Assembly: GCA_002238825.1 (NCBI GenBank)
Contig: MPNC01000004.1
Span: 5,241-69,240 of the forward strand
DNA from: SAR202 cluster bacterium bin87
GTDB taxonomy: Bacteria > Chloroflexota > Dehalococcoidia > Lucifugimonadales > UBA3495
Length of the DNA: 64,000 bases
Direction: 5' to 3'
Of the stretch, positions 38,907 through 57,680 are shown piece by piece (the first letter of the stretch is position 1; every line of letters begins with the position of its first letter). The notes beneath the pieces are model-generated. The model saw only the letters and a list, made by a program, of their open reading frames with translations, ran no database searches and was not told where the DNA came from. The translations under genes were made by a program, and so were the position numbers.

Positions 38907-40109
38907 TCAGAAAGGCCGGAGCGCCTCGCAGTGGGACGTGACCAGGCGGATTCCGTCGACGTCCCATTTTGCCACCGCCACGGTCGGCTGGCCCGGCTCG
39001 CTGATGGTGGCCGTCATGACGACCCTCTTTTGCGACTTGTTGAACGGGACCGAGTACAGGCCGCGTACCGCCGGCCGCAGCTCGCCCATGGCGCCCGGAT
39101 TGATCTGAGTGCGGTCGGAGAGCACAATCCACTCTCCCTCAATATCGGCCAGCGACGGCGGCCCGTACTTCGTCTCCTTTTCGGGGTCGATGAATTCCTG
39201 GTAGAACGCCAGCAGGATGCGGACACTGCGGTGCGTCCGGTCGCGCAGCTGAGCCACCAGCGTGTCGGGGGCCGGATCGCTCTCGAACTCCTGTGCCCCC
39301 TGGCCGATAAACCACCGCTTCTCCACCCGCTCCCAGATCTCGTCAAAATCATCCTGTTCTCGGGACGTCAACTGCAGGCCGTCCACAAACTCCAGCAGCC
39401 CGGCGGCGTATTCCAGCAGAGCATAGTGGGGGACGTCGCGGTATTGGCTGAACGGATCTCGTGAGGAGCTGGGACGGTCTGACGCCTGGGCCGTGACGGG
39501 ACCCTGCCAGTCGATGTACATGGTGCGGCCGCCGCGGGTGTCGCACTGGTAGGTGAGGGTCGGCGGCTGCGTTCCGGTCTGGTGCAGCGCCTCGTTCCAG
39601 AACCGGTGGACCTCACGGTCTCCATAGTGTTGCTGCTCATCCAGCATCCAGCTGCCAAACCGCGTGGTGGCGGGCGGCACGGGCGTCGGCGTAGGAGCCG
39701 CGGCCGGAGTTGCGGCCGGCGTGGGCGTTTCGGCAGCAGTATCGGCCGGCGTGGCGGTGGGGGTGATTGACGGGACCGGCGTTGCCGTAGCGGCGGACCG
39801 GGTAACGGGCGCCTGGCGCGTGACCTCCACCGTCTGCGGGACCGCCACTTCGCGCGTGACCTCGACGGTCTGCGGAACCACGACCGTGACGGGCACCTGC
39901 TGCGTCGCCATCACCTGGCGCGTGACCTCGACGTTCCTGACCGTTTCGACCGTGACGGGCACTTCACGCGTGACCTCAACCTCAATGGTTTCGGGCTCGA
40001 CGGTCTCGGGTTGGCCGGTGCATCCGGCGACAACTGGCAACAGCAGCAGACTGATGGCGAGGATTGTGCCCATCGGTCGGGCAATGACTGGATTGCGAAA
40101 GTGTGACAT
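38907..40109 (-). CDS. Lipoprotein with VEVTRxV-type repeats and an unknown C-terminal domain
   Basis: Lipobox VVAGC; repeated EVTREVPVTVETV/EVTRQV; Pro/Thr/Ala linker. Confidence 0.75.
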   Translation of the reverse strand: MSHFRNPVIARPMGTILAISLLLLPVVAGCTGQPETVEPETIEVEVTREVPVTVETVRNVEVTRQVMATQQVPVTVVVPQTVEVTREVAVPQTVEVTRQAPVTRSAATATPVPSITPTATPADTAAETPTPAATPAAAPTPTPVPPATTRFGSWMLDEQQHYGDREVHRFWNEALHQTGTQPPTLTYQCDTRGGRTMYIDWQGPVTAQASDRPSSSRDPFSQYRDVPHYALLEYAAGLLEFVDGLQLTSREQDDFDEIWERVEKRWFIGQGAQEFESDPAPDTLVAQLRDRTHRSVRILLAFYQEFIDPEKETKYGPPSLADIEGEWIVLSDRTQINPGAMGELRPAVRGLYSVPFNKSQKRVVMTATISEPGQPTVAVAKWDVDGIRLVTSHCEALRPF

Positions 40110-40134
40110 GATACAAATTCCCGGGATTCTGGAA

Positions 40135-40407
40135 ACGCTTCATGCTTGGACAACGGGAATCGCAGCATAAAGCGGTTGATTACGGGGAGGTACCGCCCAA
40201 GACTGCAGTACAAATGCACGAATTGCACTCTGTTACAATTCGTCCGTTTGACCCCACGGCAACCGCTAAATAGAATATTTGACGGCCTGCTTGGCCGAAG
40301 GGCTTCTCCGTCTCGGCGGAGGCTGCCCAAAAGTCGCGCCCGCTTCTTGCTCAAGCGGGCGTGACATGGTTGTCGGCCTATTTCGGACTGGCCCGAGCAG
40401 GGTTCAT
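40135..40407 (-). promoter_or_regulatory. sORF + structured leader element, copy A
   Basis: sORF MNPARASPK (40407-40378), then conserved hairpins and a long-range AGCGGTTG/CAACCGCT helix. Lies directly upstream of 38907-40109 on the same strand. Confidence 0.55.
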
Positions 40408-41269
40408 GGCAAACCCCGCGTTCGGTAACAGGTAGAGGAAGGACCCGCGGCAGCAATTCGTCCAGCGAAGCAGCGTCCGGGTCACGTCCGGTGGCGTCGC
40501 GTACTTGGGGGCGCCCGATGTGGCAGTGTTGAGATCAGCGGGCGCAGGCATGCTGAGACGCCCCTGGCGCGGACTGTCGTTATCTGCTTCAATCACCGTG
40601 GCACCTCCCTTGCAGTACGCAGGTTAGGTCGCTTGCCACAACGCCTATAGGCCCGGTTGAACTCCGCAAGGAAGGCATGGAAACCTTCTGCGTTGTCGGT
40701 TCAACCGAGTGTGCCCCGAGGGGACACAAGGCAACCATAAAGACGTTGTGGCGTCGCTCACGTTATCACAGGCGTTCCCGGGGTGCAATGCCGACCGCGC
40801 GGTACATTTTCTCTCCGTCCTTTATACATGGCAGGGCGCAATGGCCAAAGAGCGCTGCTGGAGAAATCTGAGACCGTTTGGCGGCGCGCGCGCGACATTG
40901 CGTCGCGGTATGGCGTGTGATACCGTCAGCCATGCCACAGTAATTGCTTATGCCACACGCTCGAAGAGCGTACCCACACTGGCTGCCCATTTAAGGACGG
41001 CAGGGAAGTTTTGCCTTCTCTGCGGCACAGTGTGGGGCGTCGTTACTGTGGCAAGTACCTGACCGTTCCGGTCGCAGGGGAGGTTCCACAATGCCTGATC
41101 GACTGAATTCGCGCTTCTGAGGCCGCATCTTTCGCTCGAACCCGCACTGCCTCCTTCGCTGCGACGTACGTCGTGTGGAGCAGGATGCCACTGCCGCCCT
41201 CCTGACGGAGTTGGCGGCCCCGGTCGTCCCGACCCATCTCTCAACCCATCGCCTGGTCAAGGAGTCCTG

Positions 41270-41512
41270 ATGAACCCCGCTCGGGCCTCTCCCGCGTAGT
41301 CTTGAAAAGTCGTCGCGCCCGCTTGAGCAAGAAGCGAGCGCGACTTTTGGGCAACCTCCGCCGGGACGGAGGAGCCCTTCGGCCAGCAGGCCGCCGGGTA
41401 TTTTATTCAGCGGTTGCCGTGGGGTCAACGGGATGAAGTGCGAACAGCGTCGCAATTCACCCTCCGTTCTACCGTCCCTGGTGGAGCATCCCCGGAGGCA
41501 ACCGCTTCATGC
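41270..41512 (+). promoter_or_regulatory. sORF + structured leader element, copy B
   Basis: SD AAGGAG, sORF MNPARASPA (41270-41299), then the same conserved blocks. Upstream of 41572-42066. Confidence 0.55.
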
Positions 41513-42518: not shown

Positions 42519-42582
42519 TGCGAGAGCATTCCAGGCGCACCACAACTTTAATGGCCAATCACGCTACTGACAGGAGGATCCC

Positions 42583-42830
42583 ATGATCCACGCCCGAGCC
42601 AGCCCAACGTCTTGCTGAAATGATGTAGCCCCCGCTTGAGTAAGAAGCGGAGGCTACGTTTGGGCATCCACCGCCAGGACGGGGGCGCCCTCGGCCAGAA
42701 GGCCGCTGGATAGTTTATCAGCGGTTGCCGCAGGGTAAAACGGACGTCAACTACGACCAAATCGTGGCCGTCCGATCATCCTCCTTACCAGGCAGGGATG
42801 TTGCCCGGAGGCAACCGCTTTGCGTTGTGT
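42583..42830 (+). promoter_or_regulatory. sORF + structured leader element, copy C
   Basis: SD AGGAGG, sORF MIHARASPTSC (42583-42618), then the same conserved blocks. Upstream of 42952-43308. Confidence 0.55.
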
Positions 42831-43308: not shown

Positions 43309-43616
43309 TAATTGCCGTGTGACCAGCGCTCTACGGTCTGCATTCATTTTGCCTGACCAAGAGGCCCCAAGGTCCCACGCCGGAGCCAGCCCAACGTCTG
43401 CCTGTCCAGTTTCGCAGAGACTTAAACCAAGGTCTCGAGGCCATATGCATCAGGTCCTGGACTCGGTTTGCCGGCGGATTCCAAAATCGCGTCGTCCCGT
43501 GACCGGTTCCTATAGACCGACCGGACTGACCTCACAGAATATAGGACAATCTTCCCCTGGATCTCTATCGCGGCCCGGCTGATGGGACCCACAGTATGTC
43601 CTTTAGCGTCATGAGG

Positions 43617-44165
43617 TTATCGACACACGGTCGACACTGGTGATTCTTCGCTCTGGGAGATATAAGGCGAAGAATCACCAGTGTCGACCGTTGAGTATTC
43701 GTTCGACCTTGGTTCCTCTTCCTTGGTCCCAGTGCCAACGTTGTCGAACGAAATCAAACGGTATAGGCCCGTCCCTCTTTCCGTGTCCCATTCGTCGCTT
43801 TGGCTGAATTGACCGTGTAGTGAAGATTTGACGCCACTGGGAGATGGCTTCCCTCCTTTCGCGTCACTGATGATCTTGCAACCATCCGCAAGCTTGAAGA
43901 TCCCACCAGTGCGTCTGGCGATATCTTTCGCCATCTCCATGTATGTCATTCCGAGGTCGATTTCGCTGGTTTTGACGTGGGAGTGCAATCCGTAGCGGGT
44001 GGGGTCAGGTCCAGCGCCGACCCTGGATTCACACACGGCCAACGTCGTCTGTAACGATTGGATTTGATGCTCCGTTGTTTGCAGATCCGCCCGTAGATCG
44101 TCCGCCTTGGCACTCAATTCACTCATCAGGGCGTTCAGGTCGTCAACAGTACTGGTCTTGACCAT
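43617..44165 (-). CDS. Coiled-coil + winged-helix-like protein (paralogue 3 of 3)
   Basis: N-terminus LNALMSELSAKADDLRADLQTTEHQIQSLQ, then ...MEMAKDIARRTGGIFKLADGCKII...WDTERGTGLYRLI. Confidence 0.6.
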   Translation of the reverse strand: MVKTSTVDDLNALMSELSAKADDLRADLQTTEHQIQSLQTTLAVCESRVGAGPDPTRYGLHSHVKTSEIDLGMTYMEMAKDIARRTGGIFKLADGCKIISDAKGGKPSPSGVKSSLHGQFSQSDEWDTERGTGLYRLISFDNVGTGTKEEEPRSNEYSTVDTGDSSPYISQSEESPVSTVCR

Positions 44166-44528
44166 GGCTTTCCTCCGGTTGGTCGAGCGTCTTTTTTCAT
44201 CACTGGTGCAATGGGTTTGCAGGCCATAGAATTTAAGGGTGCACGGGGAGTATCCCGTGTTGGAGCCCGTAAGGGCAATCCAGAGAGGCGGACGGGTGTC
44301 GAACCCGCTTAGCGTGATTTTCGATCACGTGCATGGCCGTCATGCTCCCGCCTCCCACTCGATAGAGGGTCGGACGCTCTGCCCGTCATAGCGATGCGTC
44401 CGGCTCTCGGCACCCATTCTGACTGGGAGTATGAACCCCCGTCAAGCGGTAACGCAACGTGTCTTGCGGCACACAGTAGCCGAAGCACCTTTATATCGCG
44501 TAGCCGATCCAAACGGATGGAGATCCAC

Positions 44529-44690
44529 ATGCCCGCGTTCTCACCGCTTTGGTCGTTCCCTTGTCCTGTTTGCAACGAGGGACTAGACACCGTTGACTGG
44601 CGACCCCGCGGGCAGTGCACCAACTGCGGGACGATCGTTGCAGATCATGCAATGCCGAACGAGTGCAACCCGGCGAAATGTTGCCGTTGA
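44529..44690 (+). CDS. Small zinc-ribbon protein (possibly frameshifted)
   Basis: SD GGATGGAG; CPVCN...CTNCG. A second CPHC ribbon follows in another frame (44615-44800). Confidence 0.3.
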   Translation: MPAFSPLWSFPCPVCNEGLDTVDWRPRGQCTNCGTIVADHAMPNECNPAKCCR

Positions 44691-44998
44691 GCCTCGGCCC
44701 ATTTTCGTCGTTCCAAGACCAGGTCCATTGGTACTTGGGCCAATGTCCCCATTGTCGCAACGCGCAGCTTGATACTGGCGTTCGGTGGCCCAATCCCTAG
44801 GGCGGAGAGACATGCCGCTGCTTTTCTTGCGGCGGTGGCTTGGTCATCACGCTAATGTATACGATCCAGTAAACAATGGCTTTCGGACATGACAACCGTC
44901 CATTCGCACGCTGTCGCGGTGTACACATTCCCAGCGGTTCCGATCAATTACCCATCGATGATGGCTCGAAACAATCAGACAGACAAGAGGATGAGAAA

Positions 44999-46669
44999 AT
45001 GAGTGATGACGACCGGATTCCGTACCTGGGTTCTGCTAAGTTGCACAATGTTTCTCCGTTTGGCTCTGAGGTCACGTTCCAATTCGACCCGAGAGTGAAC
45101 GTTCTGATTGGCACGAACGGTACGGGTAAAACTGCTGCCCTGAAGACGGTCTCCGGAGAAGGTCGTAGCCGGTTCGCACAGTCTACCGACAAGCAGTCGG
45201 CGCGTGTGAAAAGAACCATGGAACCCGAGCGCGTTGACTTCGAGAATACGGCGACCGTCCGCGTCGGGCCGGCGCGAGCTCCGTTGACTCCTGAAATGGT
45301 TCTCAGCGACCTTCGGCAGCTCGACGTTCAGGGAATGGTTGCCAAACGGCTGGCATGGGTGAGCAACATCGCCTTCGGAGCGATGGCATTGGCTTGGATT
45401 TATATTGGAGCGCTGGCTGGCGCCTCCGCACGATCTGGCACGAATCCTCAGTGGCTGCAAATTGAGACAGTCAATCTGCTCGTTCCTTTTGTGGTCTTTG
45501 TGATATCTGTCATCTTATACCGGAGTGCCTTGTCGCCACATCGTCTCACATGGTTGCTCAACCTACTAATGGGCAATCGATTGCTGTCGGAGGCTTTGAG
45601 TTCCGAGTTCCAAGTCTCATCGATCTTCATGTTTCAGTCGGTTTTAGCCGTCAATCGGCGCTGGCTGAGGCCTAAAGCAAGGTCGGACGACGACCCGCGC
45701 TCTCGCGCTGCGAATGAAGCCGCCAATCTGGCCCTTGACTGTGCGAAAAGGATTGCGCCGGAGGTGTTTCCCGCAACTACGTCGTTGGAAACCGGGAAAA
45801 TAAAGGTCCCTTTTAATATTCTCTGGATGAAGAAGACGCGTTCCATGGACGATCCTTTGTCCACCGTGCAGACGCGATACAACCCAACCCCCCTACATAT
45901 CACCGATCTGAGCGCAGGCACTCAGAACACGTTGCTTATTGCTTGGTACCTCGCACTCAGTCTCGCCTACAGGAACAAATTCCGAGAAGACTGGAAGGAC
46001 CTGCCTGCGATCCTCTTCATTGACGAAATTGAAAACCACCTGCACCCAGCATGGCAACGAAGATTGATCCCAGTGTTGCTTGAGCATTTCCCCAACTTGC
46101 AAATAATCGCCACAACGCATTCGCCCTTCCCGATAGCCGGACTGAAGGCAGGGCAGGTGCATACCCTGTATCAAGATGACGATGGGATAACCCGCGTGGA
46201 GACCAACGAATACGACATCGTTGGCTATACCGCTGATGAGATCCTGCATCGGTACCTGGAAATGCAGGACCCAACGGACCTGGAGACGGCGGAGGCAGTG
46301 GAGGTGCTGCGGTGGCTACAGAGTCTGTCGCCCCTGCTCGAAGAGAAGTCGGCGGAGACATGGAGAGCAGCGATGGTCAAGGAGTTGCGCGCTCTAGCGG
46401 CCGACGACGAATGGAGATTTGAGGACGACATAGCCATGCGATGGCTCACTGGCGAGATCAAATCCCCCCTTGCTGCCCAGACACCGCTTGAAGGTGATGC
46501 GGAATCATGGCGCCAGTCGATGATGGGGTCGTTTGAGTCGTTGGTGGGAGTGGATATCCTTTCCGGCGGCACGGTGGCAAGGCAGCGAAAGACATTGGAG
46601 GAGCAAATACTCAACGGCACGTTCCCAAAACATAAGAACTTTCAGGGCGATGAAGGTTCGGAAGCCTAA
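44999..46669 (+). CDS. ABC/AAA_21-type ATPase (PtuA-like) with a hydrophobic insert
   Basis: Start at MSDDDRIPYL (SD AAGAGG). Walker A GTNGTGKT, signature LSAGTQ, Walker B ILFIDEIENHLHP, H-loop ATTHSP. Hydrophobic segments LAWVSNIAFGAMALAWIYIGALAG and LLVPFVVFVISVILY lie between Walker A and the signature motif. Confidence 0.85.
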   Translation: MSDDDRIPYLGSAKLHNVSPFGSEVTFQFDPRVNVLIGTNGTGKTAALKTVSGEGRSRFAQSTDKQSARVKRTMEPERVDFENTATVRVGPARAPLTPEMVLSDLRQLDVQGMVAKRLAWVSNIAFGAMALAWIYIGALAGASARSGTNPQWLQIETVNLLVPFVVFVISVILYRSALSPHRLTWLLNLLMGNRLLSEALSSEFQVSSIFMFQSVLAVNRRWLRPKARSDDDPRSRAANEAANLALDCAKRIAPEVFPATTSLETGKIKVPFNILWMKKTRSMDDPLSTVQTRYNPTPLHITDLSAGTQNTLLIAWYLALSLAYRNKFREDWKDLPAILFIDEIENHLHPAWQRRLIPVLLEHFPNLQIIATTHSPFPIAGLKAGQVHTLYQDDDGITRVETNEYDIVGYTADEILHRYLEMQDPTDLETAEAVEVLRWLQSLSPLLEEKSAETWRAAMVKELRALAADDEWRFEDDIAMRWLTGEIKSPLAAQTPLEGDAESWRQSMMGSFESLVGVDILSGGTVARQRKTLEEQILNGTFPKHKNFQGDEGSEA

Positions 46670-47478
46670 TGCGTGGCGTAAACAGGGGTGCTCCTCCAAG
46701 GAGTGTGAATCTTGAAAAGTACCAGCACGCCAATGCTGAAGGGAGCGGTCTGACCAAGCACGACTATGACTTGTTGCGAAGGCGGTTGCATGGTGAGTTC
46801 GGCGGCTTATGCGCCTTTTGTGAGCGTCCAGTGCCCAGGAATAGCAGTCCCGGTGCGGTAGACCACTTCAGACCCAGGAACCCAGCCACCGGTTCACAAC
46901 TGGCCCACTTCGGCGCTGACTTGACGTTCATGTGGCTGAACCTGATGTATGCATGCCCTGAGTGTCAGACAAGAAAAGGCAACAAGTGGCCGGGTACCCT
47001 GAAGGCTCAAGACGAACAGGCAATTGACAGAGGTCTCTCTCAGCTGGCTACAAGCGATGGATGGTCGTACTTGCCTGTCTCGGTCGATGTCGGGTACGTG
47101 AACCCCAATGGAATTGATGACCCAGCGGAGGGATATTTCGAATACGACGAAGTTGAGTACCGTATAGCTCCCTCCCGCGATTTGCCCGACGACCGGCGCT
47201 CGAAGGCTCTCCGAACGATATTCGACATTGGATTGGATGAAGAATCGTTGTCCCAGGAGCGCCGCAACCACATTGATGTCATCAAGCAATATCTCGAATC
47301 CAAAGGAACGCGAAGGAGGACAGAAGAGATAGGCGCATTGGTTAGCCGCCACCGCCGGAGAAAACTGAAGGATACAAAACCAAGTGCTTACGGGCCGAGC
47401 GTGCGTTTCACTGGATTGGTATTGTTTGCCCACCAACATGGGTGGTTGGAAACCGCAAACAACAGGAATATGCCATGA
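46669..47478 (+). CDS. HNH endonuclease (PtuB / TIGR02646-like)
   Basis: TAATG overlap with the ATPase gene. CAFCERPV...VDHFRPRNP...WLNLMYACPECQTRKGNKWP. Confidence 0.8.
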   Translation: MRGVNRGAPPRSVNLEKYQHANAEGSGLTKHDYDLLRRRLHGEFGGLCAFCERPVPRNSSPGAVDHFRPRNPATGSQLAHFGADLTFMWLNLMYACPECQTRKGNKWPGTLKAQDEQAIDRGLSQLATSDGWSYLPVSVDVGYVNPNGIDDPAEGYFEYDEVEYRIAPSRDLPDDRRSKALRTIFDIGLDEESLSQERRNHIDVIKQYLESKGTRRRTEEIGALVSRHRRRKLKDTKPSAYGPSVRFTGLVLFAHQHGWLETANNRNMP

Positions 47479-47855
47479 TCTTATTTAATTCTTACGACAC
47501 TTACCCAAGTCCCAGGATCACACTACAAGTTGCCAGAAACGCAAGGGACCAGTCCATCTTTGACAGCAGAACCGTAGACGCCATCGTGGACACCGGCTTT
47601 AACGGTTGGCTGACTCTGCCTTTTGAAACCATTAATGAGTTGTTTCTCGAGCCAGTCGGTACTGATACTCTTATTCTCGCTGATGGTACAACCACACAAT
47701 CTCACCGATACAGGGCAAGCGTGTGGCTTGGACAGATTGAACGGGAGTGCTTGGTGCATCGGTTGCCAGGCGAACCGAAATTGGGCATGGCATTCCTTAG
47801 GCATGTAAACATCACGATAAGAAACGGCGAAGTCCAGGTCGACCCGCCCTACTAA
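47475..47855 (+). CDS. Retropepsin-like clan AA aspartic protease (DTGF type)
   Basis: ATGA overlap with the HNH gene. AIVDTGFNGWLTLP active-site motif; ~126 aa single-lobe size. Confidence 0.7.
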   Translation: MILFNSYDTYPSPRITLQVARNARDQSIFDSRTVDAIVDTGFNGWLTLPFETINELFLEPVGTDTLILADGTTTQSHRYRASVWLGQIERECLVHRLPGEPKLGMAFLRHVNITIRNGEVQVDPPY

Positions 47856-49465: not shown

Positions 49466-49580
49466 TATTTATGGGCAAGTCGCGGAATTTTTGGGCAGGT
49501 GACAGAATTTATGGGCAACTTCTGGAATTTATGGGCAAGTCGCGGAATTTTTGGGCAGAATCGAATTTTTGGGCACCGCC
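49466..49580 (+). repeat. Iteron-like array R2: 6 units phased at 20 bp (GAATTTWTGGGCARN)
   Basis: GGGCA cores at 49473, 49493, 49513, 49533, 49553 and 49571. The array ends ~20 bp inside the right island junction and has the same orientation as R1. Confidence 0.85.
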
Positions 49581-51335: not shown

Positions 51336-52239
51336 TCATCGGCTTCCCGTGTCGGAGCTCAGGCGGCTCACGAGATCAAATAGCCATTCTGTGGCCTCGG
51401 GGTAGTGAGCTATATCCAGCACGAATTCCTGTCGCCTGCCGACGCTCCGCAGGGAGGCGTGGTTCGCGTCATGCCGCCACCGTCTGAGGTTGGGGTGGTA
51501 AGTCAAAGGCCGCTTGTTCCCCTCTGGGTAGAACCACCGCGGCAGCCGCTATTGCGAAACGCCGGCTCCGTTGGGATCGGTCAGGACCAGCCGCTGGTCG
51601 AACCCGGGGAACACGCTCCGTCCTGCGACTTCGCACCCGTCGCCGCTCAGGTCCAGATGCGTGTCGCTGCGTAGACGGTGTTCTGGTTGCCGCGGTAGCT
51701 TCCAGAGAGGTGCGGATGGTGGCGTGCCCAGGGGAGGTCGTTGGGCCCGATGTCGGCAACCCGATACTTCTGGTCAATGTAGCCCAGCCCCACAGGACGT
51801 GGATCTCTGGGTGCCACGGACGAAGTGCCATCGTTGGGCGGTTTTCTCCACTCAGTGGTAGAGGCCGAAGAGCAAGAAGACGTCGCCGGCGCCAACGCCC
51901 TGCCTTTCGAGGTGCCCCTGCGCGATGCCGGCCAGGCCGAGCATCCCTCGCCACTGTTGCCAAGCGGCACGGTCTTTGCGTGCCGGTACGCGTTGAAGTT
52001 GAGGTCGGGGTCGAGGTGGACGCGTTCCCTTCCGCTGATTCGGCCGCTGGTGATGCCAGTAACGACGGTGGCGATGTCCAGGTCGCCGTGTTGCAGGTCT
52101 TCGAACCGTTCGCGGTCTCCGGACGGGATGGGCAACGAGAACATCGAGCCGTCGGGAAGGATGGGGCTGGGACAGCCGCCTGACCCGGAGTCGAAGCCCT
52201 TGTGGCTGAGGATCAGCTTCTGCGGCTTCAGAGTTTCAT
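51336..52239 (-). pseudogene. Multi-frameshift pseudogene of unknown family
   Basis: Collinear coding-like pieces lie in three frames: KPQKLILSHKGFDSGSGGCPSPILPDGSMFSLPIPSG...; GMLGLAGIAQGHLERQGVGAGDVFLLFGLYH; GLGYIDQKYRVADIGPNDLPWARHHPHL; RLPRWFYPEGNKRPLTYHPN...GRRQEFVLDIAHYPEATEWLFDL. Confidence 0.55.
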
Positions 52240-54375: not shown

Positions 54376-54469
54376 GGGTGGACTTTGGAAAAGGCCCTGG
54401 TGAGGTCCGCGCGGGGTTTGACTCCACCCGCCAAGGCTGCTAATCTGGAATCGTTAACAACTGAACCGT

Positions 54470-54811
54470 AAACGCCTGCCGGTGGCCCGTTAGTAGCGCG
54501 ATCAATCCCCAGCGCACGACGGGCTGAAAAGGAAATCCGGTGAGAATCCGGTGCGGTCCCGCCACTGTAATTGGCGAGACGCCCTCCCTTTCGCATCCCC
54601 GTGGTGCGAACGCAAGCCACTATCCGCCATCGAGCGGACGGGAAGGCGGAGGAGCGTCGTTATCAGCCATCAGCCAGGAGGCCTGCCAGCAGGTGTGTTC
54701 CAGCTGCACTTCGTGGAACGAGTGGGCGGAATCCCGGTATACCCAATAGCAAGACCGGTTCCCAGCCGCAGGCTCCGTCGCCCGACCGCAAGAGTGCAGT
54801 CGGGTTTTTTT
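54470..54811 (+). promoter_or_regulatory. Cobalamin (B12) riboswitch with intrinsic terminator
   Basis: GAAAAGGAAATCCGGTGAGAATCCGGTGCGGTCCCGCCACTGTAA (B12 box) ... CAGCCAGGAGGCCTGCCAGC. Terminator CCCGAC-loop-GTCGGG plus T7 at 54781-54811. Confidence 0.85.
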
Positions 54812-54983: not shown

Positions 54984-55424
54984 ATGAGCGACGTCATGCT
55001 CCGCGAGATACTAGAAGAATGCCGCGACGGGGTCGACGGCATCGGATTCAACGAGGTGGTGGTGATGCTGGAAAGCACGGCCGCCTCCGCCGAGGTCTAC
55101 ATGGACTTCGACGACCTGCGGTTCACTCCGGACGGGCGCATCGTGACCCTCATGGTGCCCGGCGGCACCCACATGCACCTGGACATGTCCAAGATCCGCG
55201 AGGCGCAGTTCATCCACACCACCAACGACCAGGGCCTCCCCTCGTACCAGTTGTGGATGCGCGACGGCGACGGCAACCCGGCCATGCGCGTCTACCTGCG
55301 CAAGTCGGACGACGACGCCACCAACCCGCCGCGCCACGGCTTCTTCATGGCCCTGCTGGACAAGTACCCCAGCAAGATCGACCTGCCCGCCGAGGCCTAT
55401 GGCTCGGCCGGCGAGCACCCGTAG
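54984..55424 (+). CDS. ChuX/HutX-like small tetrapyrrole-binding-type protein (tentative)
   Basis: 146 aa, the first ORF after the riboswitch. Loose collinear resemblance to ChuX (…QLWMRDGDGNPAMRVYLRKSD…). Not verified. Confidence 0.5.
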   Translation: MSDVMLREILEECRDGVDGIGFNEVVVMLESTAASAEVYMDFDDLRFTPDGRIVTLMVPGGTHMHLDMSKIREAQFIHTTNDQGLPSYQLWMRDGDGNPAMRVYLRKSDDDATNPPRHGFFMALLDKYPSKIDLPAEAYGSAGEHP

Positions 55425-55462
55425 AGCCGGTCCTCGTCGGCATAGCGGGTGGGCGAATTTAC

Positions 55463-55583
55463 ATTGATGCACAGGATAGACAGGATTGGATGTAGCGTTC
55501 TGGATGCGGCGCCGCTCGTGACCATACGATGAACCGAACTTCCGATCAATACCGCATACATCCTGTTTATCCTGTGCATCGAT
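55463..55583. repeat. 24-bp inverted repeat pair
   Basis: ATTGATGCACAGGATAGACAGGAT at 55463-55486 and its near-complement at 55560-55583. A related GGATACACAGGATG occurs at ~59705. Confidence 0.7.
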
Positions 55584-55628
55584 GTGAGAAGAAACGTGGG
55601 TACGCATGAGTGACCGCATGAGGTTGAC

Positions 55629-57005
55629 ATGACCTCCGCCGTAGTCATCGCCGGCGTCCGCTCCGGCGTCGGCAAGACCACCATTGCCAGCGGCGTCATG
55701 GGCGCGCTGGCCCGCCGCGGGATGCGGGTCCAGCCCTTCAAGGCCGGCCCCGACTACATCGACCCCTCGTACCACACCATCGCCTGCGGAGTGCCCTCCC
55801 GCAACCTGGACACCTGGCTGCTGCCCCATCCTGTGGTCTCCGAGCTGTTCCACCGGGCGGCCGGCGCGGCGGACATCGCGGTGGTCGAGGGCGTCATGGG
55901 CGTGTTTGATGGCCACTCCTCCTTGGATGAGGACGGCTCCACGGCCGAGTTGGCCAAGCTCCTCGACGCCCCGGTGATCCTCATCGCCGACGCCGGCAAG
56001 GTCGCCCGCAGCGTGGCCGCCGAGGTGTTGGGCTACCAGCAGTTCGACCCCGACCTGCGCGTGGCCGGCGTGATCCTCAACGGTGTGGGCAGCGAGCGGC
56101 ACCTGGAGTTCTGCCAACCCCAGATCGAGGCGACCACCGGCCTCCCCGTGGTGGGCTGGCTGCCCCGTCGTGATGACCTGGTGCAGCCCGAGCGCCACCT
56201 GGGCCTCATTCCCACCGCCGAGGGCACCGTCATGAACGACTGGTACGACGCCCTCAACGCCCAGATTGAGCAGACCATCGATCTGGACGCCATCGCCCGC
56301 ATCGCGGCCACCGCCGGCCGGCCCCGGGCGACCGCCGAGGGCGTCTTCCCGGCGACGCCGCAGGCTGCGCGTGCTGCCATCGCCGTGGCCCAGGATCGCG
56401 CCTTCTCGTTCTACTACCAGGACTCGCTGGACCTGCTGGCAGCATGGGGCGCGGAGATCGTGCCCTTCTCGCCTCTGGACGACGAGTCGCTGCCCGACGG
56501 GGTGGGCGGCGTCTACCTGGGTGGTGGGTTTCCGGAACTGTTCGCCGCAGATCTCTCCGGCAACGCCGGCATGCTGGAATCGATGCGACGAGCCGTTGCG
56601 CGCGGCCTGCCCATATACGCCGAGTGCGGCGGCCTGATGTACCTGGGGCGCAGCCTCTCCGACCTGGACGGCCAGCAGTACCCCATGGTCGGCGCAATTC
56701 CGGTCGTGTCCTCGATGGAAGGCCGGCGGCTGCACCTGGGCTACCGGGAAGTGTCGGCCTGCGGCGACGGCCCCCTGCTCACCGCCGGCCAGCAGGTGCG
56801 CGGGCACGAATTCCACTGGTCGGTGCTGCAGGACCCGCCCGACGCCGCCAGCGCCGCCTACCAGGTGGTCAACCAGGATGGTCGGCCCGAGGGCTTCCGC
56901 GCCGGCAGCGTGTGGGCATCCTACATCCACGTGCACCTGGGCAGCCGGCCCGGCCTGGCGAAACGGTTTGTGGATATCTGCGCGGCGGCAAAGGGAGGGT
57001 TTTAG
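55629..57005 (+). CDS. cbiA: Cobyrinate a,c-diamide synthase
   Basis: VIAGVRSGVGKTTIASGVMGAL...FKAGPDYIDPSYH, with a C-terminal glutamine amidotransferase part (YAECGGLMYL). Confidence 0.9.
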   Translation: MTSAVVIAGVRSGVGKTTIASGVMGALARRGMRVQPFKAGPDYIDPSYHTIACGVPSRNLDTWLLPHPVVSELFHRAAGAADIAVVEGVMGVFDGHSSLDEDGSTAELAKLLDAPVILIADAGKVARSVAAEVLGYQQFDPDLRVAGVILNGVGSERHLEFCQPQIEATTGLPVVGWLPRRDDLVQPERHLGLIPTAEGTVMNDWYDALNAQIEQTIDLDAIARIAATAGRPRATAEGVFPATPQAARAAIAVAQDRAFSFYYQDSLDLLAAWGAEIVPFSPLDDESLPDGVGGVYLGGGFPELFAADLSGNAGMLESMRRAVARGLPIYAECGGLMYLGRSLSDLDGQQYPMVGAIPVVSSMEGRRLHLGYREVSACGDGPLLTAGQQVRGHEFHWSVLQDPPDAASAAYQVVNQDGRPEGFRAGSVWASYIHVHLGSRPGLAKRFVDICAAAKGGF

Positions 57006-57680
57006 ATGGCCACCCCGACGACAACTGTGTTGCCTACTCTTCTGCGTACCGTCCGCATGCCTTCGGACTTCGAGGGCTATGTACTGATTCCGCTGGCAGA
57101 GTTCGGTCTGTCGCTGGACAGTCCAGATTTGGGCGTCTGGCTGGAAGGATTTGCAGGGCGAAACAAAGACGCAGTGGGCGATTTTGAGATCACCGCCCGT
57201 GGCGAGCTGAAAATCATGTCGCCGATAGGAATGCCAGGAGACTGGCACCAGGCTGAGATCATGACCAGCCTGGGAGTGTGGGCGCGAGAAGCAGGCGGTA
57301 GAGCGGGTGACCCCACGTCGGCGTTTTGGCTAGTTGATGGCTCTTTACGTGGCCCTGACACTTGGTGGATGTCCGCAGAACGCTGGAACTCGCTGCCAGC
57401 AGAGGCACGCAAGCCGTTCCGGGCCGGGGTTCCCGATTTCCTCGTCGAAATAGTGTCGTCGTCCAACCGGGAATCGGAGCTGGAAGATAAGGTGGAAGTG
57501 TACTTGCAAGGCGGCGCGCGCCTGGTCTGGGTGATCAACGCCCGCCTGCGTCGCGTCACCGTATACCGCGCCGGCGCGGAGCCGGAGATACTGCAGGACC
57601 CGGATATGCTGGGTGGCGGCGACGTGCTGCCCGGCTTCGCCTTCAACGTGCGCGAACGCATTTTCGACAACGTCCCTTGA
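57006..57680 (+). CDS. Uma2 family (DUF820) endonuclease
   Basis: VPDFLVEIVSSSNRESELEDKVEVYLQGGARLVWVIN. Confidence 0.8.
   Translation: MATPTTTVLPTLLRTVRMPSDFEGYVLIPLAEFGLSLDSPDLGVWLEGFAGRNKDAVGDFEITARGELKIMSPIGMPGDWHQAEIMTSLGVWAREAGGRAGDPTSAFWLVDGSLRGPDTWWMSAERWNSLPAEARKPFRAGVPDFLVEIVSSSNRESELEDKVEVYLQGGARLVWVINARLRRVTVYRAGAEPEILQDPDMLGGGDVLPGFAFNVRERIFDNVP

Follow-up and report, generated by a model that had tools for sequence, protein, structure and literature searches.

In published systems, oligomers of the ATPase PtuA bind the nuclease PtuB via C-terminal helices and restrain it, and PtuB cuts phage DNA or tRNA-Tyr (PMC12819146, PMC12673091, PMC13096335). The Septu and retron-type PtuAs characterized in the literature that we searched form soluble complexes, and no description of a transmembrane PtuA or of a protease-linked Septu was found there. 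Here, we analyze a locus of three genes, designated A, B, and C, from the SAR202 cluster bacterium bin87 (GTDB lineage Bacteria; Chloroflexota; Dehalococcoidia; Lucifugimonadales; UBA3495; assembly GCA_002238825.1, contig MPNC01000004.1, positions 5,241 to 69,240 of the forward strand). This stretch of 64,000 nucleotides is referred to as the window, and all coordinates are counted from its first letter. A first-pass annotation, made from the letters without database searches, had proposed a Septu-like ATPase-nuclease core with a hydrophobic insert and an extra retropepsin gene. In the reading that we favor and consider likely, the locus is a horizontally acquired type I Septu module whose PtuA has a transmembrane (TM) hairpin, with gene C as a passenger or recent add-on.

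Results

Genes A and B form a stand-alone PtuA/PtuB pair

The three genes and the ATPase motifs are located as follows.

44999..46669, plus strand: gene A, ptuA-like ABC/AAA_15-AAA_21 ATPase with a two-helix hydrophobic insert, 556 aa
45110..45133, plus strand: Walker A motif GTNGTGKT (aa 38-45 of gene A), read from the sequence; N40, G43, and K44 invariant in alignment A2
45908..46048, plus strand: signature LSAGTQ (aa 304-309) and Walker B/ENHLHP block ILFIDEIENHLHP (aa 338-350) of gene A; invariant columns in alignments A1 and A2
46669..47478, plus strand: gene B, ptuB-like HNH nuclease with a CAFC...DH...N...CPEC zinc-finger HNH and a helical C-terminal domain, 269 aa
47475..47855, plus strand: gene C, partner-less clan AA (DTGF) retropepsin-like protease, 126 aa

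Genes A and B overlap by 1 nt in the sequence TAATG (46667-46671), and genes B and C overlap by 4 nt in ATGA (47475-47478), exactly as the first-pass annotation had reported. All three starts are preceded by a purine-rich ribosome-binding site 7-9 nt upstream. An alternative, longer open reading frame (ORF) for gene A opens at 44876; we placed the start at 44999 because the N-termini of the homologs, the public gene calls, and an AGAGGA Shine-Dalgarno sequence agree on this position. The start of gene C was set to 47475 and not to an upstream GTG because the N-terminus of its family reads 'MI..'. Scans for sigma-70 promoters and intrinsic terminators gave results no better than those for shuffled sequence.

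All four motifs from which gene A had been read as an ATPase (GTNGTGKT, LSAGTQ, ILFIDEIENHLHP, and TTHSP) were found in the sequence. TTHSP is located at aa 372-376, and the Walker B/ENHLHP block aligns with the IDEIELHLHPKWQ block of Ec78 PtuA. The CxxC...DH...N...CxxC HNH layout described for gene B is likewise present, with CAFC (aa 48-51), DHFRP (65-69), NL (91-92), CPEC (96-99), and RKG. The zinc-finger and catalytic residues of PtuB (C48/C51, D65-H66, N91, and C96/C99) are in place.

Among the profile searches that had been proposed as a check (Pfam, TIGR02646, and PADLOC), PADLOC and the AAA families of Pfam back PtuA/PtuB, while TIGR02646 stays below its cutoff. Gene A matched dozens of PADLOC PtuA models with a best E-value of 5e-36, in addition to the retron model ATPase_I-A (2.1e-32), and scored above the cutoffs of the Pfam families AAA_21 (7.9e-22, 79.1 bits) and AAA_15 (1e-16, 62 bits). 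Gene B matched the PADLOC models HNH_I-A (1.2e-17) and PtuB (3.4e-16), gave a weak match to Pfam HNH (15.6 bits, below the cutoff), and reached 39.6 bits with TIGR02646 (cutoff, 52.15 bits). What weighs against the PtuA/PtuB identity is that the cutoffs of the NCBIfam equivalog models were not reached by either protein (NF041760 for PtuA, 118.7 of 500 bits; NF041761 for PtuB, 63.7 of 150 bits); both models are built on the retron Ec78 effectors. By their sequences, genes A and B are homologs, and not equivalents, of the Ec78 effectors.

A profile of the clade to which gene A belongs (described below) matched the PtuA chains 9vh1 (Ec78; 3e-21) and 8ee4 (E. coli Septu; 1e-20) in the PDB. The AlphaFold2 (AF2) model of gene A has a predicted local distance difference test score (pLDDT) of 75.9, its top 43 Foldseek matches are all PtuA chains with a probability of 1.00, and C-terminal helices were modeled at aa 428-538. 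A scan of GTDB representative genomes yielded 78 PtuA loci, all of them in Dehalococcoidia or other Chloroflexota metagenome-assembled genomes (MAGs), which together with three loci fetched separately made up a set of 81. An HNH homolog lies directly downstream of ptuA in nearly all of these other loci. PADLOC, Pfam, the PDB sequence matches, and the predicted fold thus agree on the initial assignment of the first two genes to a PtuA/PtuB (Septu) pair.

That the pair instead supplies the effectors of a type I-A retron (Septu type II) with an overlooked reverse transcriptase (RT) or non-coding RNA (ncRNA) is highly improbable. The two PADLOC retron models given above score about equal to the Septu models, and the retron Ec78 proteins are the best PDB and NCBIfam matches, as this explanation would predict. 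However, there is no ORF with RT motifs near the operon; the window has a single YxDD-type match, within an unrelated ORF of 2037 aa that lies ~29 kb upstream. Neither a retron nor any other ncRNA was matched in Rfam near the operon, and no upstream neighbor is conserved across the other loci whose PtuA has the insert (the TM clade, see below). The N-terminal RT-contacting extension of Ec78 is also missing from PtuA, with Walker A at aa 38 versus 93. The other TM-clade loci share no conserved flanking non-coding element with the window locus, and the ORFs flanking the operon gave no defense-family matches. A type I-A retron was rejected because neither an RT, nor a retron RNA, nor a conserved flanking non-coding element was found, and genes A and B are a stand-alone, retron-less Septu-type pair of type I.

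Two further candidates were dismissed. For PARIS (AriA/AriB), the AriA model matched less well than PtuA (3.3e-23), and an HNH nuclease takes the place of a DUF4435/Toprim AriB. A Gabija or OLD-type assignment was rejected because the partner is an HNH nuclease with no Toprim domain.

Dehalococcoidia MAGs contain many soluble PtuAB loci, some of them tandemly duplicated. Two ptuA-ptuB pairs stand in series at L043 (7179-11399), and a single ptuA is followed by three consecutive PtuB-like HNH ORFs at L058 (9293-11459).

The hydrophobic insert of PtuA is most likely a transmembrane hairpin

The ATPase had been described as carrying two strongly hydrophobic segments between Walker A and the signature motif, and as possibly membrane-anchored on their account. 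The segments are real, fall between the two motifs, and are kept in all of the approximately 55 full-length relatives, where they span ~19-22 residues and are not amphipathic.

45350..45430, plus strand: predicted TM helix 1 (aa 118-144), bounded by R117/R145; best 19-mer with a Kyte-Doolittle hydropathy (KD) of 1.84 and a summed Hessa dG of +0.6; inside modeled helix 98-146
45461..45520, plus strand: predicted TM helix 2 (aa 155-174), bounded by E156/R175; KD 2.40; modeled helix 157-178

The full-length relatives that carry the insert were obtained by a homolog search, have 33-66% identity, and are ~550 aa long. Ordinary PtuAs, with ~450 aa, can be aligned with them in the two ATPase lobes and nowhere else. 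The additional ~80 residues fall, in the alignment, between the invariant residues R93 and F210. The insert is poorly conserved in sequence and retains its hydrophobicity: each full-length clade member has exactly two 19-mers with a KD of ~1.2-3.15 (mostly >1.6) and a summed Hessa dG of ~-4.8 to +5.5. None of ~60 ordinary PtuA relatives has two such segments, with a peak KD of ~1.0-1.7 and a dG of at least +3.8. For 49 full-length members, the two segments show mean Eisenberg hydrophobicities of 0.80 and 0.74, hydrophobic moments of 0.09 and 0.12, and 0.12-0.16 charged residues per segment.

The charges flanking the segments are distributed unevenly. K/R residues outnumber D/E residues by 2.65 to 1.02 before TM1 and by 3.06 to 0.20 after TM2, where a basic RR motif is conserved throughout the clade, and the relation is reversed in the ~15-residue loop (0.84 versus 2.51). 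According to the positive-inside rule, K/R-rich flanks around a short acidic loop point to an N-in/C-in hairpin with the ATPase in the cytoplasm. The AF2 model has helices at 98-146 and 157-178, which cover both segments with moderate confidence. Judged from hydropathy, charge bias, and the modeled helices, the insert is most likely a TM hairpin that anchors the ATPase in the membrane, as had been suspected, and it defines a whole clade.

A neighbor-joining tree calculated from the ATPase lobes alone placed all insert carriers in one clade. The two-segment test flagged 55 of the 56 members of this tree clade; the second segment of the remaining one, P0035, is weaker. The single clade of carriers points to one acquisition of the insert. 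Among the 78 PtuA loci in GTDB representative genomes, only two full-length copies have it, and a third close relative is broken off upstream of the insert region.

Some points speak against a TM hairpin. The topology is deduced from charge bias, hydropathy scales, and an AF2 model of medium confidence (pLDDT of 52-78 across the insert), and the window PtuA is among the weaker members of the clade, with a dG of +0.6 and +2.4 and a KD of 1.84 and 2.40. The hydrophobic helix-loop-helix might alternatively be a buried oligomerization element, that is, a greasy counterpart of the coiled-coil 'helical flap' of retron-type PtuA. The ATPase domain of Ec78/Eco7 PtuA has an insert of two helices (residues 255-310) through which PtuA-PtuA contacts are made, and no such insert exists in the PtuA of E. 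coli Septu (PMC12819146, PMC12673091), so the region between the lobes tolerates lineage-specific helical inserts; the only moderate AF2 confidence across the hydrophobic insert would also fit. The segments are, however, apolar throughout, as their hydrophobicities and low moments attest, nearly free of charges, and poorly conserved, and positive-inside flanks occur in ~50 sequences. This pattern is typical of lipid-exposed helices and not of coiled coils or interfaces. Counted along the sequence from the aligned lobes, the insert would, moreover, be ~130-190 residues ahead of the signature lobe, compared with 40-95 for the Eco7 coiled-coil domain. We regard a buried oligomerization element as quite unlikely and retain the TM hairpin.

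The PtuBs of the TM clade are also longer than usual. They comprise 261-279 aa, ~40-50 residues above ordinary PtuBs; retron-Eco7 PtuB has 216 aa. The extra block sits after the HNH domain and reads GTL...DGW.Y.PVSV..GYVNPN. It is present in the window copy and at L001, L002, L004, L005, and L087-L092, and absent from the PtuB of L003, the most divergent TM-clade member.

Gene C encodes a retropepsin-like protease that is probably not a Septu component

The catalytic motif DTGF of gene C is located at aa 39-42. The protein scored 46.3 bits (E 4.2e-12) with TIGR03698, under the cutoff of 57.35 bits, and is, by its sequence, a divergent member of the clan AA DTGF proteases. HMMER returned 727 relatives, nearly all of them stand-alone proteins of ~120-125 aa, and D39, T40, G41, F42, and G104 of the psi-psi-G motif are invariant across 23 relatives. 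The AF2 model (pLDDT 87.5) has a retropepsin fold; the top PDB folds are the proteases of equine infectious anemia virus (EIAV), Rous sarcoma virus (RSV), and xenotropic murine leukemia virus-related virus (XMRV), with TM-scores of 0.48-0.66. Gene C is a genuine, intact retropepsin-like gene. In this respect, the first-pass annotation was right about the third gene. A conserved third component of Septu, however, it is not.

The neighborhood analysis revealed no co-occurrence of the protease with ATPase-HNH pairs. A search by tblastn and the family hidden Markov model (HMM) found a protease beside ptuB in 0 of the 81 other PtuA loci; it gave only three matches, weak and distant, which lie 1.6-6 kb upstream of ptuA and of which one is on the opposite strand. 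By their gene calls, the 11 orthologous TM-clade loci (L001-L005 and L087-L092, besides the partial L006 and L093) are two-gene cassettes with no protease. A k-mer-indexed homolog search returned only gene C itself. Among 1.84 billion cluster representatives searched with HMMER, only P0122 (49%) and P0123 (43%) exceed 40% identity. P0122 is encoded beside a transposase, a DUF4276 fragment, and a Cas3-like gene, P0123 beside Fic, and neither by PtuAB.

The locus of P0122 (L094, 2314-4765) has a mobile or defense-island context: the gene, which has an insertion of ~25 aa, lies between a DDE transposase and the DUF4276 fragment, followed by the Cas3-like HD-helicase gene. The canonical partner of ~90 aa (see below) is missing there.

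The end of ptuB bears on how gene C came to its position.

47452..47478, plus strand: lineage-specific read-through extension of ptuB, ETANNRNMP and the stop codon, with the TGA of the protease ATGA as its end; from the alignment of nine orthologous PtuBs

Eight of the nine orthologous PtuBs end 0-2 residues past ...RFTGLVLFAxQxGW(F/L), and L001 has its own, unrelated tail. Only in the window copy does ptuB run 8-9 extra codons into the start of a downstream gene, and in the alignment this extension looks like a by-product of insertion. The exact overlaps had been taken to imply coupled expression. The overlaps themselves stand, and the ATGA is traced to the protease family: because its start is a conserved Met-Ile, any in-frame upstream ORF stops there. 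Gene C, which has the lowest GC content of the three genes (0.493 versus 0.549 and 0.540), is probably co-transcribed with ptuA-ptuB.

Some features argue against a mere passenger. The protease is intact, has its 4-nt overlap with ptuB and its own ribosome-binding site (AGGA, 7 nt upstream of the start), and is, like the whole locus, 100% identical on 21 public contigs that come from several samples, including MKWU01000014.1 from an Aplysina aerophoba sponge metagenome (PMC5099237, PMC5649159). Gene C may be co-expressed with a local or co-opted function at this locus. The same features would be expected of a true three-component system, in which the retropepsin is a translationally coupled, functional partner of PtuAB that processes or activates PtuA or PtuB or serves as a second effector. 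Such a system would also agree with the intact DTGF and psi-psi-G motifs, the confident retropepsin model, and the weak matches of gene C to PADLOC aspartyl-protease accessory models (E 0.011 and 0.021). We nevertheless consider it unlikely. The protease is missing from all other PtuAB loci examined, including the closest orthologs at 62-66% identity, and even its own best ortholog, P0122, does not adjoin PtuAB. Furthermore, the protease family has its own canonical partner, the ATGA arises from the Met-Ile start of that family, and the ptuB tail resembles a by-product of insertion. Gene C is probably a locus-specific passenger or a recent add-on and not a component of Septu.

The protease family has a partner gene of its own

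We sampled the wider protease family at 80 metagenomic loci (L098-L177). In 77 of them, a conserved gene of ~90 aa lies immediately upstream of the protease, with a called overlap of 4 nt in 31; as at the window locus, the overlap is often ATGA. The consensus of the partner reads ..RYSKEEvARRGeeIYErrIRaqVE..GKFlVIDIETGeYEID.DeleAtdRL..rPDA....RIG..AAYRLG, and it has no Pfam or NCBIfam match. Examples are the genes 908-1183 and 1180-1452 at L114 and the protease at 1095-1466 at L165. In the window, a search with the partner HMM and filters off detected neither the partner nor a remnant of it in or upstream of ptuB. Gene C, P0122, and P0123 form a tiny partner-less subgroup. The partner and the DTGF protease look like a widespread two-gene module, which is possibly toxin-antitoxin-like or defense-related and for which no annotation was found.

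The operon lies in a low-GC island

The first-pass annotation had placed the operon in an island, next to a coiled-coil/winged-helix paralog and a zinc-ribbon ORF. The island and both ORFs exist.

43617-44165, minus strand: 182-aa ORF, no significant Pfam or PADLOC match
44394-44690: 98-aa CxxC...CxxC ORF, no significant Pfam or PADLOC match

The GC content at third codon positions (GC3) is 0.55-0.68 across 42.8-49.1 kb versus 0.74-0.81 for most of the outside genes measured (two are lower, 0.59 and 0.66), and besides the operon this region has only small ORFs with no family annotation, several of which are apparently secreted or membrane proteins by inspection. We read it as a horizontally acquired, variable island. 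TM-clade cassettes elsewhere are set among transposases, SIR2, toxin-antitoxin, helicase, and restriction-modification genes. As to the supposed paralogy of the 182-aa ORF, tblastn found no second copy in the window, only the ORF itself. Five identical public contigs carry no gene call for the 98-aa ORF. The five public contigs compared are 100% identical over 5 kb and thus offer no variation usable for the ratio of nonsynonymous to synonymous substitutions (dN/dS).

Other elements were observed in and around the island. The minus-strand 182-aa ORF has at its 3' end a perfect 25-nt inverted repeat with a 15-nt loop (43627-43691), which resembles a terminator and accounts for spurious microRNA-family matches in a permissive Rfam scan. 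Within the 833-nt gene-free gap upstream of ptuA, the minus strand at 44284-44355 weakly matches the tRNA-Sec model (E 0.044; 27.7 bits, short of the gathering score); ARAGORN finds no tRNA. The match may be due to chance, or it may reflect the decayed remains of a tRNA or attachment site at the island. A repeated element of ~240 nt occurs at 40110-40420 (minus strand), 41255-41510 (plus), and 42565-42822 (plus), with a partial copy at 43358-43404. It is directly upstream of three different small secreted or membrane ORFs (38907-40109, minus strand, and two with starts at 41509 and 42820) and contains the GC-rich hairpin GTCGCGCCCGCTTGAGCAAGAAGCGGGCGCGAC. Its 3' end, CCCGGAGGCAACCGCTT, is beside the start codon in two copies, with a variant in the third. 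Possible identities of the element, which has no Rfam match, are a leader or regulatory RNA common to these ORFs and a repeat resembling a miniature inverted-repeat transposable element (MITE). A tandem array of 4-5 copies of a 20-nt unit (ATTTATGGGCAAGTCGCGGA-like) lies at the right-hand edge of the low-GC island (49467-49558). Just past the island, a 165-aa ORF on the minus strand (51647-52144) matches Nmad3 (nucleotide modification associated domain 3) with an E-value of 3.9e-12. A cobalamin riboswitch (RF00174; 94.4 bits, E 3e-22) lies on the plus strand at 54463-54704. The gene that it regulates is probably on the plus strand downstream because the minus-strand ORF 55011-57248 has an implausible GC content at first codon positions (GC1) of 0.85.

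Discussion

On the favored reading of a type I Septu module with a TM hairpin, a PtuAB module would have been acquired horizontally by a sponge-associated Chloroflexota bacterium of the class Dehalococcoidia. Within a small monophyletic clade, ~80 residues would have been inserted into PtuA, between the lobe with Walker A and the lobe with the signature motif. They would form a two-helix TM hairpin whose two ends lie in the cytoplasm together with the entire ATPase, the short acidic loop being outside, so that a PtuA oligomer with bound PtuB would be held to the membrane's inner face. In analogy to characterized Septu and retron-Eco7, PtuA would restrain PtuB until infection, upon which PtuB would cut nucleic acid; an anti-phage function of the window PtuAB is inferred on the same analogy. 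Tethering might position the complex where phage DNA enters, or the hairpin might supply the PtuA-PtuA contact that is made elsewhere by the soluble helical inserts of retron-type PtuA; both ideas are speculative. A partner-less copy of the protease would then have landed directly behind ptuB, which would now read through into the protease start.

A bolder reading of the whole locus would make the hairpin essential and not a passive anchor. It could have a PtuA ring assemble within the membrane where the phage genome enters, bringing the HNH nuclease into contact with the incoming DNA, or it could be a membrane-perturbing second effector released on activation, and the retropepsin would have been recruited here to process or regulate the complex. 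If true, the ATPase, the nuclease, and perhaps the protease would make up an immune complex resident in the membrane, for which no counterpart has been described. We find this combination doubtful.

The Septu core itself is ordinary, and the TM-PtuA clade is a new variant of it. The clade would, if the predicted topology is true, be the first sign of this ATPase-nuclease machinery working from the membrane, and it bears on how and where Septu senses infection. The soluble Dehalococcoidia paralogs offer a natural comparison for what localization contributes. An architecture of 'Septu plus retropepsin' is not supported as a system, and the case of the protease is a caution against taking 4-nt overlaps as functional linkage.

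Comparison with known systems

Gene C resembles the clan AA DTGF proteases (TIGR03698; the structural relatives are retroviral proteases, Ddi1, and Rickettsia APRc) in its D-T-G-F and hydrophobic-hydrophobic-Gly motifs. It is a single domain of ~125 aa with a predicted retropepsin fold that would need homodimerization. In contrast to that family, it is below the curated cutoff and has no upstream partner of ~90 aa.

Among membrane-associated defense proteins, Tmn (a YobI-family TM P-loop NTPase; PMC13001434) is likewise a P-loop NTPase with predicted TM helices. Its ATPase family is unrelated, however, and the TM hairpin of the window protein is inside an ABC-type head with a nuclease partner. 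Unlike for membrane-associated defense proteins such as the two-TM effectors of retrons and of the cyclic oligonucleotide-based antiphage signaling system (CBASS), nothing at the window locus marks the membrane as a target.

The type I-A retrons (Septu type II; Ec78 = Retron-Eco7, Ec83) provide the best sequence and fold matches to PtuA (9vh1, 9n69, 9nnb, and 9kjx), and the ATPase domain of their PtuA likewise bears a two-helix insert specific to the lineage. The window locus differs in having no RT, no ncRNA or msDNA (multicopy single-stranded DNA), and no N-terminal RT-binding extension. Its insert is hydrophobic and, in the primary sequence, apparently sits elsewhere than the Eco7 coiled-coil domain.

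From the type I Septu of E. coli (PtuA/PtuB; PDB 8EE4, 8EE7, 8EEA, and 8SUX), the locus is set apart by the ~80-residue insert with two predicted TM helices in PtuA, characterized PtuAs being soluble, by a PtuB that is ~40-50 residues longer than typical PtuBs, and by the retropepsin gene attached to the 3' end of the operon at this one locus only. It shares with type I Septu the two-gene ptuA-ptuB cassette with no RT, the location in a mobile or defense island, and a PtuB made up of a zinc-finger HNH nuclease and a helical C-terminal domain. The PtuA of both is an ABC-type ATPase with Walker A, signature, Walker B with the ENHLHP block, and H-loop, and, like E. coli PtuA, the window protein has a residue other than Gln at the fifth position of the signature (T308).

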